A DNA stretch of 64,000 nucleotides. It comes from Escherichia coli. GTDB taxonomy: Bacteria > Pseudomonadota > Gammaproteobacteria > Enterobacterales > Enterobacteriaceae. The notes under the pieces are model-generated. The model saw nothing but the letters and a program-made list of their open reading frames with translations, did no database searches and had not been told where the DNA came from. Below are positions 7,787 through 43,593 of this stretch, one piece after another (the first letter of the stretch is position 1; each line of letters starts with the position of its first letter). Made by a program: the position numbers and the translations under genes. The DNA lies in the NCBI RefSeq assembly GCF_003334305.1, contig NZ_QOWS01000011.1; one strand, 5' to 3'.

Positions 7787-8458
7787 ATGAAGATTTTACT
7801 TATTGAAGATAATCAAAGGACCCAGGAGTGGGTAACGCAGGGGCTTTCCGAAGCGGGTTATGTCATCGATGCCGTTTCTGATGGCAGAGATGGGCTTTAT
7901 CTTGCGCTGAAGGATGATTATGCATTGATCATTCTGGATATTATGCTTCCGGGTATGGATGGCTGGCAGATCTTACAAACGTTAAGAACGGCAAAGCAAA
8001 CCCCTGTTATTTGCCTTACTGCAAGGGATTCTGTCGATGACAGAGTCAGAGGGTTGGACAGTGGAGCAAATGATTATCTGGTAAAACCTTTTTCATTTTC
8101 TGAGTTGCTGGCAAGGGTTCGGGCACAATTAAGGCAACATCACGCTTTGAATTCAACATTAGAAATCAGCGGCTTAAGAATGGACTCTGTTAGTCAAAGT
8201 GTGAGCAGGGACAATATCAGTATTACACTGACGCGCAAGGAGTTTCAGTTACTTTGGCTACTGGCCTCCAGAGCAGGCGAAATTATACCCAGAACGGTTA
8301 TTGCGAGTGAAATTTGGGGAATCAACTTTGATAGTGATACCAATACGGTGGACGTCGCCATTCGCAGGCTCCGCGCAAAAGTTGATGATCCTTTTCCTGA
8401 AAAGCTAATCGCCACAATCCGGGGGATGGGCTATTCATTCGTAGCGGTAAAAAAATAA
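7787..8458 (+). CDS. hprR: Two-component response regulator HprR (YedW)
   Basis: OmpR-family receiver and winged-helix domains; start taken at MKILLIEDN (223 aa) inside the longer track ORF. Confidence 0.9.
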   Translation: MKILLIEDNQRTQEWVTQGLSEAGYVIDAVSDGRDGLYLALKDDYALIILDIMLPGMDGWQILQTLRTAKQTPVICLTARDSVDDRVRGLDSGANDYLVKPFSFSELLARVRAQLRQHHALNSTLEISGLRMDSVSQSVSRDNISITLTRKEFQLLWLLASRAGEIIPRTVIASEIWGINFDSDTNTVDVAIRRLRAKVDDPFPEKLIATIRGMGYSFVAVKK

Positions 8459-9816
8459 TGAAAAGATTATCTATAACCGTCCGTTTAACCTTGCTTTTTA
8501 TATTGCTGCTGTCTGTTGCTGGCGCTGGAATTGTCTGGACTCTCTATAATGGCCTGGCAAGTGAGTTGAAATGGCGCGATGATACAACACTCATTAACCG
8601 GACAGCGCAGATCAAGCAGTTGTTAATTGATGGGGTAAATCCAGATACGTTACCTGTATACTTTAACCGGATGATGGATGTTAGCCAGGATATCTTGATC
8701 ATTCATGGTGATGGCATCAATAAAATTGTTAACCGGACAAATGTCAGTGATGACATGTTAAATAACATACCTGCTAGTGAGACAATCAGCGCAGCTGGCA
8801 TTTACAGAAGCATTATTAATGACACTGAGATTGATGCTTTACGAATTAATATTGATGAAGTTTCGCCATCATTAACGGTTACTGTGGCTAAATTGGCTTC
8901 AGCCAGACATAACATGCTTGAACAGTATAAAATCAATAGCATTATAATTTGCATTGTCGCCATTATACTGTGCTCAGTATTAAGTCCGCTGTTAATCCGA
9001 ACGGGGTTACGAGAGATCAAAAAGTTGAGTGGTGTAACGGAAGCGCTGAATTATAACGATAGCCGGGAGCCTGTTGAGGTTAGCGCATTACCGAGAGAAC
9101 TAAAACCTCTTGGGCAGGCGTTGAATAAAATGCATCATGCTTTAGTCAAAGATTTTGAGCGTCTAAGTCAGTTTGCTGACGATCTCGCTCATGAACTTAG
9201 AACGCCAATTAATGCATTACTGGGTCAGAATCAGGTTACGCTCAGTCAAACCAGAAGTATCGCTGAATATCAAAAAACAATTGCCGGTAACATTGAAGAG
9301 CTGGAAAATATTTCGCGGTTAACAGAGAACATACTGTTTCTTGCCAGGGCAGATAAAAACAATGTTTTGGTGAAACTGGACTCGCTTTCTCTCAATAAGG
9401 AAGTCGAAAATTTGTTGGACTATCTTGAATATCTTTCAGACGAGAAAGAGATTTGCTTTAATGTCGAGTGCAATCAGCAAATCTTTGCGGATAAAATTTT
9501 ACTGCAACGAATGTTATCGAATCTTATTGTTAATGCCATTAGATATTCACCAGAAAAATCGCGTATTCATATAACCAGTTTTCTTGATACCAACGGATCT
9601 CTTAATATTGATATCGCCAGCCCTGGAACGAAAATTAATGAGCCTGAAAAACTCTTCCGTAGATTTTGGCGGGGAGATAATTCGCGTCATTCCGTAGGTC
9701 AGGGACTAGGCCTTTCTTTAGTCAAAGCGATTGCCGAATTACATGGGGGAAGTGCTACGTATCACTATCTCAATAAGCATAATGTGTTCCGGATTACGTT
9801 GCCGCAAAGAAATTAA
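8458..9816 (+). CDS. hprS: Two-component sensor histidine kinase HprS (YedV)
   Basis: 452-aa ORF with two transmembrane segments, H-box HELRTPIN and ATPase domain; start overlaps the hprR stop. Confidence 0.9.
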   Translation: MKRLSITVRLTLLFILLLSVAGAGIVWTLYNGLASELKWRDDTTLINRTAQIKQLLIDGVNPDTLPVYFNRMMDVSQDILIIHGDGINKIVNRTNVSDDMLNNIPASETISAAGIYRSIINDTEIDALRINIDEVSPSLTVTVAKLASARHNMLEQYKINSIIICIVAIILCSVLSPLLIRTGLREIKKLSGVTEALNYNDSREPVEVSALPRELKPLGQALNKMHHALVKDFERLSQFADDLAHELRTPINALLGQNQVTLSQTRSIAEYQKTIAGNIEELENISRLTENILFLARADKNNVLVKLDSLSLNKEVENLLDYLEYLSDEKEICFNVECNQQIFADKILLQRMLSNLIVNAIRYSPEKSRIHITSFLDTNGSLNIDIASPGTKINEPEKLFRRFWRGDNSRHSVGQGLGLSLVKAIAELHGGSATYHYLNKHNVFRITLPQRN

Positions 9817-11366: not shown

Positions 11367-12482
11367 TTAGAACTGGTAGACGATACCAACTGCAAACTGG
11401 TCATCAGCTGCTGCGCCAGTAATGGCGGCGTCATCTTTATCCAGCATGTTGAATTTGTATGCAGTATAAACGTTCATGTTCTTATTAAAGTAGTACCAGG
11501 TACCAACTTCAATGTAGTTCACACGGTCAGCGTCAACATATCTATGTCCAGGTACCCCTTTGATATCTTTACCTTTAGAGTACACATAACCTAAGGACGG
11601 ACGCAGACCAAAGTCGAATTGATACTGAACAACCGCTTCAAAGTTCTGGGTTTCATTGATAAGTTGATCACGCATTATTGTATTGCCTTCTCGATCGGCA
11701 ACACCTGTATCAATAGAACCCGGAGTCATATTACGAGTTTCGCCGTACATTACAGCTGCGTAGACATTGTTCGCGTCATACTTTGCAGCCAATGACCACA
11801 GTTCAGCATTTGAACCGTTTCCATCGGCAACTTGATCGTTGGTGCGATCAGATTTGCTATATGCACCAACGATACCAAAACCATTGATGTTATAGTCTAC
11901 AGACAACGCATAGCCGTCACCATTTTGTTTCTTAGTGCTACGGTTGCTGTTTTTGCCTTGGTACTGAATCGCAAAATCAAGACCATCAACCAGGCCAAAG
12001 AAATCATAGTTACGGTAGGTTGCAACACCGTTGGTACGACCATTCATGAAGTTGTCAGCGGAAGCCCAGGAATCGCCACCCCATTCAACTAACATATCGG
12101 TATAAGCTGCGGCATCATAAGCAACACCGTAGTTACGGCCATAGTCAAATGATCCTAACTCGTTATATTTCAAACCGGCGAAGGTTAAACGGGTTTTTTC
12201 CTGGTTTTCACCTTCGGGCTTGCTGGCGTCGAGGTTGTATTCAAACTGACCAAAACCAGTCAGTTCGCTGGTGATTTGGGTTTCACCTTTAACACCGAAA
12301 CGAGCATAGGAGGTATCTTCGTTTTCGCTGTTATTATCATCAGTATTTGACCAGATGCGTTCGCCAACCATCTTGCCGTAGAAATCAACTTTATTGCCAT
12401 CTTTATTATAAATTTCAGCCGCATTTGCTGCGCCAGCAACTAATAACGCCGGGACCAGCATTGCCAGAACTTTTCTTTTCAT
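11367..12482 (-). CDS. yedS: Intact OmpC/OmpF-family outer-membrane porin at the yedS position
   Basis: 371-aa frame from [21 protein letters not shown] (signal peptide) to a C-terminal F; classical porin motifs; sits where K-12 has the yedS pseudogene. Confidence 0.85.
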
Positions 12483-12796
12483 TATGTATTCCCTTGTGAT
12501 TATAATCTTCATGAATATATCAATAAGTGCCGTTATCCAAAAAAAAGCACATTTGGATACTATTCTATGAAGTTCATTTTATTTTAAGGATTACATGTAA
12601 CAAATGTATTTAAAAGATTTCAAAGTGTTTCTAATATATTTAATATAATTCAGGATTATGAATTCTGAATATAAACATTCATGAAGATTATAAATGTATA
12701 TCAATAAGTTATGAGTTGAACTGAAAGATAGGGAGTATCAATGATCGTTGCGCTAAACGGCTGGTGTGATCACGCGCACATTAATGAAGGCATAAA

Positions 12797-12826
12797 AAAA
12801 AGCCGGCATCATGCCGGCCCAAAAAA
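12797..12826 (-). terminator. Strong intrinsic terminator on the minus strand in the porin-yedR spacer
   Basis: GC-rich hairpin GCCGGCATCATGCCGGC followed by eight U on the minus strand. Confidence 0.7.
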
Positions 12827-12886
12827 TATAAACAAGACGATAAAAGGCTAATAACGGAGGCATCATGACACAGAATAATAAAAAGG
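12797..12886 (-). ncRNA. rseX: Candidate small RNA (about 90 nt) ending at the terminator; position consistent with RseX
   Basis: Possible sigma70 promoter (TTCAAT, 18-nt spacer, TACAAT) about 90 nt upstream of the terminator on the minus strand; RseX placed between yedR and yedS from memory; 5' end not established. Confidence 0.4.
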
Positions 12887-21219: not shown

Positions 21220-21306
21220 AACACATCAGATTTCCTGGTGTAACGAATTTTTTAAGTGCTTCTTGCTTAAGCAAGTTTCATCCCGACCCCCTCAGGGTCG
21301 GGATTT
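21220..21306 (+). ncRNA. dsrA: DsrA small regulatory RNA
   Basis: 87-nt match to remembered DsrA, including the terminal CCCGACCCCCTCAGGGTCGGG hairpin and U-tract. Confidence 0.95.
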
Positions 21307-34841: not shown

Positions 34842-35510
34842 TCAAACAGGTTGAATTAACTCCGCGCCCTGGTTTTTGACATTACCTACCGCGCGCGATA
34901 CCGGGTGCCAGGTGAACTGGTTTGCTGGAACACAGCCACTGGCAGCAATTTCAGAGGCTTATTTACCGCTAATCTCTTGCCGCATCCATTCCCGCGCAGC
35001 TTCTGGCGACAGTACCAGCGGGCGGCGGTCATGAATATCTACCAGACCCTGGTCTGCTGCTGCAGTGACAATTAAAAATCCTTCGGCTTCGTCACCACGC
35101 TCAAACGGTGTGCTACCTATCGCGGCTATAAAAACAGGTTGTCCATCAGCGCGATAGATAAAATAAGGCTGTTTTTTGTCGCCTTCTTTTTTCCACTCAA
35201 ACCAGCCATCGGCAAAACAGATTGCCCGACCATGTTGCCAGAGCGGTTTAAACATACGACTGGTTGCGGCAGTTTCTACGCGGGCGTTAATCAGCGGCGG
35301 TTTATCCCACCATCCGGGAGCATATCCCCAGAAAACCGGATCCAGATGAAGGTGTTCATCACGTTCACTGAGCAGAAGGACTTTGGTTCCCGGCGCGACG
35401 TTGTATCTGCCAATGGGTTCGGGATCATAGGGAATATCGCGTTCAATATCTTCCGCGAGAAGCGCAAGGTAATCTTCACGCGTTTGGGATTGGGCAAAGC
35501 GTCCACACAT
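34842..35510 (-). pseudogene. yedK: yedK (SRAP-family abasic-site processing protein) interrupted by an in-frame TAA at 34959-34961; 183 codons before it, 38 intact codons after it
   Basis: N-terminal MCGRF (catalytic Cys2) and SRAP domain; the frame resumes after the TAA as ASEIAASGCVPANQFTWHPVSRAVGNVKNQGAELIQPV, ending at TGA 34842-34844; 183+1+38 = 222, the remembered K-12 length. Confidence 0.7.
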
Positions 35511-40052: not shown

Positions 40053-41459
40053 TTACTTGGAATTACTGTTGTTTTCGAACTGCTGCGTTAAGTAGCTGCT
40101 GGTGCTGTTTAACGAGGTCATTAAAACGTCCAGTTGGGTAAATTGTTCTTTGTAGCGAGCGACCTGCGCATCAATGCGATCGCTGGCGGCGTTGTAGTCT
40201 TTAGTTAACTTATTCAGGGTCTTACTAACGCCATCGGTAGCGGCTTTAATAATGCCCGTTGTCGAAAGCCAACTGGTCAGGTTGCTGCCGATGGTGGTTG
40301 TGATGCCGGTTTTTTTACCATCGCCAACAATCAATGCACCTACGCCGCTGGCATCTTTTTTCAGTGCAGCGGTGAGTTTGTCGGCATCCAGTTCCAGTTT
40401 GCCATCGCTGGGATCGGTCGTGATACCAATCTGCGCCAGCGTTTTATAGTTGGAAGAACTGACGGTATTACTCAGCATCGATTTCAACTGCGTCTGAATC
40501 GTCCGCAGCGTGGAGTCGCCGAGCAGTGCGCCATTGCTTGAACTCTGGCTATCAGCTCCCGCATCTACGGCGGTGTATTTGGTCAGGCTGCTGAAGGTAT
40601 CTATTAGCGAGTTATAGGCATTCACCCAGTCTTTAATCGCCGTTTGCGCTTTGGAGGTGTCCTGAGTGATGGTTAGCGTCTGGTTGCCCGTGGTGACATC
40701 GTTCAGGTTCAGGGTGATGTTTTCCAGCGCGTCGCTGATGGTGTTGCTGCTGTTCTCAATGGCGACGTTGTTGACCGTCAGCTGCGCATTCTGGGCGGCG
40801 ACCGAGACCTCCATACCGTTGCTACTGGCACTGGCGTCATAGCCCATAAAACTTTGTAGCGCATCATCACCGCTGACCGAGAGTGTCATCGCATTATCAA
40901 GGCCGGTGTCATTTGATGTGACTGACAGACGATATTCACCGTTACCCACGTTAATGATGCTCGCACTTACGCCCGCTTTTGCGTTGTTGATGGCATCACG
41001 GATCCCGCTTAACGACGAGTTAGCCGCGCTGATATCAATGGTAATCGGATCTTTGTCGCCGCCTTGTTGAATGGTGAGTTTGCTGTCGCTGGTGGCGATC
41101 GCCGTTTTCGTATCGTCTCTGGTGGTGCGCGTGGTCAGGGTTTGCGCCTGCGCCAGATGGGTGACGCTGATGGTGTATTTCCCGGCGATGGCGTTACCCG
41201 CGGTGGTGGCACTGAACGCGGTGGTGCTGCTGGTGGTGCTGGTGGCGGAAAAAAGATCGGCTTTAGACAATGCAGTATTGGCGGTCTGGAAAGTCGTCAG
41301 CGCGCTTTTCAGCGTACCGTAGGCGCTAAGTTTAGCGGTAAACGACGATTGCTGATTTGAAATAGGGGTTAGCGTCGCTTTTTGCGCGGCGGTGAGGCTA
41401 TCAAGGATTGAACTTAAATCCAGGCCTGACCCGACTCCCAGCGATGAAATACTTGCCAT
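40053..41459 (-). CDS. fliD: Flagellar filament cap protein FliD
   Basis: 468-aa ORF. Confidence 0.95.
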   Translation of the reverse strand: MASISSLGVGSGLDLSSILDSLTAAQKATLTPISNQQSSFTAKLSAYGTLKSALTTFQTANTALSKADLFSATSTTSSTTAFSATTAGNAIAGKYTISVTHLAQAQTLTTRTTRDDTKTAIATSDSKLTIQQGGDKDPITIDISAANSSLSGIRDAINNAKAGVSASIINVGNGEYRLSVTSNDTGLDNAMTLSVSGDDALQSFMGYDASASSNGMEVSVAAQNAQLTVNNVAIENSSNTISDALENITLNLNDVTTGNQTLTITQDTSKAQTAIKDWVNAYNSLIDTFSSLTKYTAVDAGADSQSSSNGALLGDSTLRTIQTQLKSMLSNTVSSSNYKTLAQIGITTDPSDGKLELDADKLTAALKKDASGVGALIVGDGKKTGITTTIGSNLTSWLSTTGIIKAATDGVSKTLNKLTKDYNAASDRIDAQVARYKEQFTQLDVLMTSLNSTSSYLTQQFENNSNSK

Positions 41460-41621: not shown

Positions 41622-41648
41622 TAAAGGTTGTTTTACGACAGACGATAA
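41622..41648 (+). promoter_or_regulatory. sigma28 (FliA) class-3 promoter of fliC
   Basis: TAAAGGTT, 11-nt spacer, GACGATAA, about 75 nt upstream of the fliC ATG. Confidence 0.8.
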
Positions 41649-41724: not shown

Positions 41725-43431
41725 ATGGCACAAGTCATTAATACCAACAGCCTCTCGCTGATCACTCAAAATAATATCAACAAGAACCAGTCTGCGCTGT
41801 CGAGTTCTATCGAGCGTCTGTCTTCTGGCTTGCGTATTAACAGCGCGAAGGATGACGCCGCAGGTCAGGCGATTGCTAACCGTTTTACTTCTAATATTAA
41901 AGGCCTGACTCAGGCTGCACGTAACGCCAACGACGGTATCTCCGTTGCGCAGACCACTGAAGGCGCGCTGTCCGAAATCAACAACAACTTACAGCGTATT
42001 CGTGAACTGACGGTTCAGGCTTCTACCGGGACTAACTCCGATTCAGATCTGGACTCCATTCAGGACGAAATCAAATCCCGTCTCGACGAAATTGACCGCG
42101 TATCCGGTCAGACCCAGTTCAACGGCGTGAACGTACTGGCGAAAGACGGTTCGATGAAAATTCAGGTTGGTGCGAATGACGGCCAGACTATCACTATTGA
42201 TCTGAAGAAAATTGACTCTGATACGCTGGGGCTGAATGGGTTTAACGTTAACGGCAAAGGTACTATTGCGAACAAAGCTGCTACAGTCAGCGATCTGACC
42301 GCTGCTGGTGCAACGGGAACAGGTCCTTATGCTGTGACCACAAACAATACAGCTCTCAGCGCTAGCGATGCACTGTCTCGCCTGAAAACCGGAGATACAG
42401 TTACTACTACTGGCTCGAGTGCTGCGACCTATACTTATGATGCGGCTAAAGGGAACTTCACCACTCAAGCAACAGTTGCAGATGGTGATGTTGTTAACTT
42501 TGCAAATACTCTGAAACCAGCGGCTGGCACTACTGCATCAGGTGTTTATACTCGTAGTACTGGTGATGTGAAGTTTGATGTAGATGCTAATGGCGATGTG
42601 ACCATCGGTGGTAAAGCCGCGTACCTGGACGCCACTGGTAACCTATCTACAAACAACGCCGGCATTGCATCTTCAGCGAAATTGTCCGATCTGTTTGCTA
42701 GCGGTAGTACTTTAGCGACAACTGGTTCTATCCAGCTGTCTGGCACAACTTATAACTTTGGTGCTGCGGCAACTTCTGGCGTAACCTACACCAAAACGGT
42801 AAGTGCTGATACTGTTCTGAGCACAGTACAGAGTGCTGCAACGGCTAACACAGCAGTTACTGGTGCGACAATTAAGTATAATACAGGTATTCAGTCTGCA
42901 ACTGCGTCTTTCGGTGGTGCGAATACTAATGGTGCTGGTAATTCGAATGACACCTATACTGATGCAGACAAAGAGCTCACCACAACCGCATCTTACACTA
43001 TCAACTACAACGTCGATAAGGATACCGGTACAGTAACTGTAGCTTCAAATGGCGCAGGTGCAACTGGTAAATTTGCAGCTACTGTTGGGGCACAGGCTTA
43101 TGTTAACTCTACAGGTAAACTGACCACTGAAACCACCAGTGCAGGCACTGCAACCCAAGATCCTCTGGCTGCCCTGGACGACGCTATCAGCTCCATCGAC
43201 AAATTCCGTTCATCCCTGGGTGCTATCCAGAACCGTCTGGATTCTGCGGTGACTAACCTGAACAACACCACTACCAACCTGTCTGAAGCGCAGTCCCGTA
43301 TTCAGGACGCTGACTATGCGACCGAAGTGTCCAACATGTCGAAAGCGCAGATTATCCAGCAGGCCGGTAACTCCGTGCTGGCAAAAGCCAACCAGGTACC
43401 GCAGCAGGTTCTGTCTCTGCTGCAGGGATAA
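41725..43431 (+). CDS. fliC: Flagellin (H antigen), 568 aa, non-K-12 central domain
   Basis: Conserved N-terminal ([20 protein letters not shown]...) and C-terminal (LSLLQG) flagellin domains flanking a long Thr/Ala/Gly-rich variable region. Confidence 0.95.
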
Positions 43432-43447
43432 TCGCCTGATTACGCGC

Positions 43448-43472
43448 AAACCCCGCTCCGGCGGGGTTTTTT
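43448..43472 (+). terminator. fliC intrinsic terminator
   Basis: AAACCCCGC TCCG GCGGGGTTTTTT hairpin with U-tract. Confidence 0.9.
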
Positions 43473-43560
43473 ACAATCGGCTTTTTGCGTAACCCCCAAA
43501 TAACCCCTCATTTCACCCACTAATCGTCCGATTAAAAACCCTGCAGAAACGGATAATCAT

Positions 43561-43568
43561 GCCGATAA
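43561..43568 (+). promoter_or_regulatory. Candidate sigma28 -10 element upstream of fliA
   Basis: GCCGATAA 25 nt upstream of the fliA GTG; no good -35 located. Confidence 0.4.
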
Positions 43569-43593
43569 CTCATATAACGCAGGGCTGTTTATC

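Follow-up and report, generated by a model that had tools for sequence, protein, structure and literature searches.

A flagellin gene lies within the stretch of 64,000 nucleotides of Escherichia coli DNA analysed here, hereafter called the window, and the central region of its product differs from that of the K-12 flagellin. The locus raises three questions: whether this is an intact fliC gene in its ordinary place, which H type it encodes, and where its central domain comes from. These were addressed by database comparison, domain searches, and structure prediction.

An intact flagellin gene in the usual fliC locus

The open reading frame listing of the window contains a single frame with exactly the limits of this gene, opening with ATG and 568 codons long (Table 1). 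In a Pfam search, Flagellin_N (PF00669) matched residues 5-140 with E 1.5e-46, covering positions 1-136 of the 139 in the model, and Flagellin_C (PF00700) matched residues 482-566 with E 1.9e-31, covering positions 2-86 of the 86 in its model; PF12445, the enterobacterial FliC central family, matched residues 326-472 (E 1.2e-21). Residues 176-480 are made up of 20.3% T, 17.4% A, 11.5% G, and 8.9% S, and these four residues together account for 58% of this part versus 35% of the two ends. An earlier sequence-only reading had described a flagellin with conserved N- and C-terminal domains around a Thr/Ala/Gly-rich centre at roughly residues 180-480. The Pfam matches and a BLASTP comparison of the ends with K-12 bear out the first part of this description, and the composition agrees with the second, the boundaries being right to a few residues.

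Among 45 homologues, the N-terminal part is 85-100% identical, and the C-terminal part is 97-100% identical in most. Residues 89-98, which we take to be the segment of the TLR5 site, read LQR(I/V)RELxVQ in the homologue alignment, where this segment is invariant, including R91, R93, E94, L95, V97, and Q98. An antisense reading frame of 141 aa within fliC (42043-42468, minus strand) found no support and was treated as a spurious chance ORF. The region 41725-43431 is a real gene, an intact fliC, and not a chance reading frame.

The gene is in the usual E. coli fliC locus, in an orientation reversed relative to K-12. On the minus strand it is neighboured by amyA, fliT, fliS, and fliD (40053-41459), and the plus strand carries fliC, fliA, fliZ, tcyJ, and dcyD, so that fliC has fliD on one side and fliA on the other, and a sigma-28 class-3 promoter precedes it. 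In the same window, fliA, fliZ, fliD, fliS, fliT, and fliE-R are all annotated as intact. The 24 kb around fliC match E. coli A7, a strain from orangutan faeces, at 100% identity (NZ_CP028767.1; window position x equals position 2842660 - x of that record), and nearly the whole of this stretch is also 100% identical to strain GF131. The gene itself is 100% identical to fliC of A7 and GF131, where its product is annotated as FliC/FljB family flagellin WP_001764597.1.

Transcription of fliC uses sigma-28, and sigma-28 promoters were located by direct pattern search; a sigma-70 promoter scan of the fliC region was uninformative, with 2 matches versus 2.7 expected. The fliD-fliC spacer of 265 bp, which is the same as in MIN10 and differs from K-12 at two positions, contains the element TAAAGGTTGTTTTACGACAGACGATAA, presumably the fliC promoter as judged from established K-12 knowledge. 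K-12 and MIN10 have exactly this element, as well as the same sequence in the remainder of the 5'UTR and in the ribosome-binding region, and all of this is conserved in Kluyvera. The exact consensus upstream of fliD is the sole match to TAAA-N15-GCCGATAA in the 64 kb, against a chance expectation of 0.04. Downstream of fliC, a hairpin (RNA fold -23.5 kcal/mol, z = -2.4) and the T run after it plausibly form an intrinsic terminator.

Table 1 Positions of the fliC gene, its parts, and adjacent elements in the window
Feature	Position	Strand	Basis or remarks
Divergent fliDST sigma-28 promoter (putative), exact consensus TAAA-N15-GCCGATAA	41503..41529	-	Upstream of fliD
Presumed fliC class-3 sigma-28-type promoter, TAAA-N15-GACGATAA	41622..41648	+	Unique match in the window
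fliC coding sequence, H45 allele	41725..43431	+	568 aa plus stop, ATG start
Conserved N-terminal part, aa 1-175, D0/D1 helices	41725..42249	+	Near-identical to K-12/H7 FliC; helices in the model
Central variable surface-exposed domain, aa 176-480, H-antigen determinant, predicted D2-D4	42250..43164	+	No alignment to K-12 H48; model; composition
GNLSTNNAG motif, aa 305-313, predicted counterpart of the H7 D4 dimer site	42637..42663	+	HMMER alignment to 7SN4
Conserved C-terminal part, aa 481-568, D1/D0 helices, plus stop	43165..43431	+	Flagellin_C at 482-566
fliC-fliA spacer, 162 bp	43432-43593		Alignments to K-12 and MIN10
Candidate fliC intrinsic terminator, 9-bp G+C stem, 4-nt loop, T run	43448..43473	+	Terminator scan

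Other features of the window

Apart from the flagellar genes, the first 2834 positions of the window correspond to the start of a yersiniabactin high-pathogenicity island at an asn tRNA: they contain ybtS, which is cut by the window end, a tyrosine-type integrase gene at about 1335-2597, and tRNA-Asn at 2759-2834. An intact unnamed porin gene (about 11367-12482, minus strand) lies close to the sRNA gene rseX (12795-12884, minus strand; Rfam, 99 bits), and Rfam also located DsrA at 21220-21306. The gene yedK, encoding an SOS response-associated peptidase (about 34842-35510, minus strand), is annotated in the source genome as a pseudogene with an internal stop.

The central domain is of the H45 type

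A BLASTP comparison with K-12 FliC aligned only residues 1 to about 212 (83% identity) and 464-568 (82%), with nothing between. The N-terminal match is near-identical up to about residue 176, residues 489-568 carry a single conservative substitution relative to K-12, and megablast to K-12 covered nothing between window positions 42251 and 43159. The K-12 type H48 is ruled out by a centre that does not align and by a length of 498 versus 568 aa. The sequence-only reading had put the protein 70 aa above the 498 aa of K-12, which is exact (MG1655 fliC, b1923, has 1497 nt and encodes 498 aa), and had held that the centre departs from the K-12 type, as the lack of any central BLASTP alignment to H48 confirms. 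It had also asked for a comparison with H-typed fliC genes; by way of strains typed H45, this comparison gives H45.

A whole-gene search was made against 5426 complete E. coli genomes. Through its conserved ends fliC matches nearly every one of them, and at least 80% of its length is matched in only 86. A megablast search with the central 901 nt found exactly the same 86 genomes, all at 95-100% identity and nothing weaker, so that the H45 type is discrete. The carriers divide by central identity to the window into 25 at 99% or more and 61 at 95-99%.

Three carriers bear an H45 label. One, deposited as 'Escherichia coli O126:H45 strain MIN10', has a FliC that agrees with the window protein in 564 of 568 residues (99.3%). 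The centre of TW11681, published as O19:H45 (PMC6630672), is 98.3% identical, and IAI39, listed as O7:H45:K1 (PMC8281228), is 99.1% identical over the gene. Overall, identity to strains typed H45 is 98.3-100% in the central DNA, and the centres of the other E. coli forms in the alignment are 41-47% identical to the H45 centre. Judged by this comparison, the fliC gene of the window is H45, because its central domain is identical or near-identical to those of three strains carrying this label, MIN10, TW11681, and IAI39, some of whose labels may be in-silico calls. The H45 type strain is 4106-54 (GenBank AY250023.1; PMC4753304). The MS-H typing paper names the H45 reference strain without its sequence, and the member names of the protein cluster contain no H45 label or type-strain accession, only the generic 'FliC/FljB family flagellin'.

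The exact protein is already public as WP_001764597.1; it occurs on 538 contigs, and the mouse commensal MP1 has it as its FliC. We put at about 95% the probability that the gene is the chromosomal fliC of an E. coli strain identical here to A7 and encodes the H45 filament protein. It is an ordinary, already catalogued H45 allele in its normal locus, and for the gene itself the significance of this result is small. Its practical meaning is that the strain can be typed as H45, a type that occurs in ETEC O19:H45, in extraintestinal O7:K1:H45, and in commensal strains.

A short fliC 3'UTR lacking most of FliX

The 3'UTR was compared by alignment. The spacer between fliC and fliA measures 162 bp in the window, about half its length in K-12 (320 bp) and MIN10 (319 bp); a REP-containing stretch of about 157 bp that is present in K-12 and MIN10 is absent here, and the terminator hairpin alone is left in a 3'UTR of roughly 42 nt. 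In K-12, the absent 157-bp stretch represents most of the 195-nt sRNA FliX (b4827), of which the active form, FliX-S, is about 100 nt long and includes one REP (PMC10578931). A search with Rfam at gathering thresholds returned nothing in the interval 41-44 kb and no match to FliX.

Short spacers of 163-165 bp were also found in IAI39, MP1, and A25, all of which are H45, in AR_0067, which has an unrelated 552-aa type, and in both Kluyvera contigs compared below. Since it is common to all of these, the short spacer is probably ancestral. Among the matches listed, a full-length K-12-type FliX segment is present in approximately 3503 of the 5426 genomes, so that, by the same matches, the FliX body is absent in roughly a third of E. 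coli genomes. This suggests that the sigma-28-dependent sRNA control of flagellar synthesis described for K-12 may not hold throughout the species.

Relatives in Kluyvera and the origin of the H45 form

In a protein search, the nearest clusters beyond the query's own, none of them labelled E. coli, were flagellins of 568 aa from Kluyvera sichuanensis, K. intermedia, and K. georgiana, with 94-95% identity, followed by flagellins of Erwinia and Pantoea at 85-86%. When only the H45 centre is considered, identity is 92% to Kluyvera and 75-78% to Erwinia and Pantoea. The likeness extends to further types: two other E. coli forms, of 595 and 605 aa, have counterparts of the same length labelled Kluyvera, at 90% and 91% (labels as deposited).

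Two Kluyvera contigs were compared with the window. Both show the same fliD-fliC-fliA arrangement, with fliC at 8001-9707 in each, and the identity of their flanking genes to E. coli DNA, 76-83%, rules out that they are mislabelled E. coli. Between H45 and Kluyvera, fliC DNA is 86-88% identical overall and 82-85% identical in the centre. Synonymous divergence (dS) is 0.57-0.67 for fliC, 0.69-0.94 for its centre, and 1.2-1.6 for the flanking genes, which places the centre at about half the value of the flanking genes. The dN/dS of the centre versus its Kluyvera orthologues is about 0.05, which indicates that purifying selection maintains the H45 centre as a domain that folds and functions.

One explanation for this likeness would be that the H45 allele was recently imported into E. 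coli from Kluyvera or a relative. The same-length Kluyvera flagellins, so much closer in the centre than the other E. coli forms, and a dS in fliC below that of the flanking genes speak in its favour, as does the short 3'UTR free of REP sequences, which is the Kluyvera architecture. However, the central DNA identity is only 82-85%, against 76-83% in the flanks, so that any transfer must be old; the lower dS may reflect nothing more than strong codon bias, fliC being expressed at a very high level; upstream of the gene, the sequence is of the E. coli type and identical to K-12; and the short 3'UTR also accompanies the unrelated 552-aa E. coli H type. A recent import is unlikely, and as the main reading we rejected it on the central DNA identity.

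The likeness between H45 and Kluyvera would instead be old: either the two share a long-standing polymorphism, its dS reduced by codon bias, or the exchange took place long ago. A broader reading, which we rate at even odds, is that the H45 variable domain belongs to a cross-genus allele lineage and did not arise within E. coli alone. E. coli H types would then be drawn from a pool about as old as the split between Escherichia and Kluyvera and attributable to balancing selection or old inter-genus exchange, with strong purifying selection within forms.

A survey of 2020 placed H45 in an atypical cluster and stated that no E. coli variable-region form is significantly similar to the flagellins of another species (PMC7018530). 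The Kluyvera data disagree with this statement, and a cross-genus allele pool, if real, would revise it. Sharing of whole H forms between genera would also bear on the long-standing matter of the source of diversity in flagellin variable domains. A literature search combining Kluyvera, flagellin, and H antigen returned nothing on shared forms.

Predicted structure and kinship with H7 flagellin

The nearest solved structure in a HMMER search is the O157:H7 filament 7SN4, to which the protein aligns end to end (E 1.3e-201); full-length matches were also obtained to 7SN7, 7SQD, and 9N59. Identity to the H7 flagellin of 7SN4 is 66% overall, and the two centres are 39% identical (BLASTP, E 2e-52).

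An AlphaFold monomer model was built from 46 homologues. Residues 180-470 are modelled mostly as beta strands with a pLDDT of about 90, and the terminal helices have lower confidence, as expected for a monomer. With this model as query, the best Foldseek match was again 7SN4 (E 3.6e-45), followed by filaments of Azotobacter, EPEC H6, and Achromobacter; the top four Foldseek entries are the four HMMER entries. The global TM-score to 7SN4 is only 0.47, with an rmsd of 41 A, because the monomer model orients the domains differently, and kinship to 7SN4 was judged by E-values and sequence alignment and not by the TM-score. By HMMER, BLASTP, and Foldseek, the outer domains D2-D4 are homologous to those of the H7, H6, and Achromobacter flagellins. 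These comparisons place H45, as a diverged member, in the H7/H1-like family (PF12445).

In H7 flagella, the outer domains D2-D4 pair into an outer-domain sheath, and when N319 and N323 of the D4 dimer site are mutated, the sheath is disrupted and the cells are less motile (PMC8931119). In the HMMER alignment to 7SN4, these asparagines correspond to N306 and N310 of the window FliC, within the motif GNLSTNNAG. Of this motif, G305, L307, and T309 are invariant among the 46 homologues, N310 is found in 44, and N306 in 33. Because of the full-length homology to the O157:H7 flagellin and the conserved D4 asparagines, it is plausible that H45 filaments have an H7-like outer-domain sheath. Against it stand the central identity of only 39%, the shortness of the motif, and the low TM-score.

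Proposed function and expression

The steps proposed here are taken from established flagellin biology. FliA (sigma-28) would transcribe fliC from the class-3 promoter at 41622-41648, and FliC, chaperoned by FliS, would leave the cell by way of the flagellar type III apparatus and polymerise under the FliD cap. The conserved helices of aa 1-175 and 481-568 would form the D0/D1 core of the filament and carry the segment recognised by TLR5, and the central 305 residues would make up beta-rich outer domains exposed at the filament surface, which would be the target recognised by H45 antiserum. A sheath of outer domains like that of H7 would alter filament waveform and tumbling. The core functions probably apply, given what is established for flagellins, the near-identical ends in K-12 and H7, and the unvarying segment LQR(I/V)RELxVQ, and we infer that the window FliC is expressed and assembled into filaments.

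It is improbable, slightly more so than a recent import, that the gene is intact yet silent or irrelevant, the strain being non-motile or using another flagellin so that this ORF does not set the H antigen. Near-identical fliC genes do persist in non-motile Shigella, as the 90% protein cluster, with 297 member sequences, includes S. boydii and S. dysenteriae; an IS3-family element disrupts the same H45 fliC allele in two E. coli genomes; and expression cannot be read from sequence. Against this stand the intact ORF, promoter, ribosome-binding site, and terminator, the set of flagellar genes annotated as intact in the window, and the finding that strain A7 has a single place matching a fliC query in megablast, which detects fliC-like genes, divergent flagellins aside.

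Variation among H45 alleles

Compared with other H45 alleles, the window gene shows 13-36 nucleotide differences, mostly synonymous and clustered in the conserved 5' end. Of its 13 differences from the MP1 gene, which encodes the same protein, 12 fall in nt 1-525 and the last is at nt 1704, whereas nt 526-1440 agree throughout; relative to IAI39, 10 of 15 differences fall within nt 1-525. Because the differences cluster there, this pattern suggests recombination in the conserved 5' part (41725-42249), and recombination in the conserved part is usual for fliC. In the records NZ_CP032204.1 and NZ_OZ546943.1, the H45 fliC gene is split by insertion of an IS3-family transposase, and these strains are presumably non-flagellate.

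That the gene represents a different or new H type merely resembling H45, such as a serologically distinct variant, is most improbable: Q478 of the window allele is replaced by K478 in all other cluster members examined, and its protein differs from the MIN10 H45 protein at 4 positions, but position 478 is where the conserved C-terminal part borders the centre, the central DNA is 98.3-100% identical to strains typed H45, and the other E. coli forms are far off, with 41-47% identity in the centre and no megablast match under 95%.

Comparison with known flagellins

The H45 gene of the window shares with K-12 fliC (H48, b1923) its locus, promoter, and 5'UTR, and the D0/D1 ends of the two proteins are nearly identical, whereas the K-12 centre is unrelated in sequence and the K-12 protein is 70 aa shorter. 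K-12 filaments are without a sheath of the H7 type (PMC8931119). The O157:H7 flagellin differs in another way: the window FliC is 17 residues shorter, with several central indels and a different serotype, and the D4 motif GNL(T/S)TNNAG is present in both proteins with both asparagines kept.

The FliC proteins of Kluyvera sichuanensis, K. georgiana, and K. intermedia have the same 568 aa, and the fliC-fliA spacer is about 163 bp; unlike in the window, amyA is absent next to fliT in Kluyvera. Within H45 itself, MIN10 has a K-12-type spacer of 319 bp, in contrast to the 162-165 bp of the sub-lineage to which the window belongs. In their coding sequences, the other H45 fliC genes (MIN10, TW11681, and IAI39) have the same length of 568 aa and the same locus, and they differ from the window gene at the allele level only.
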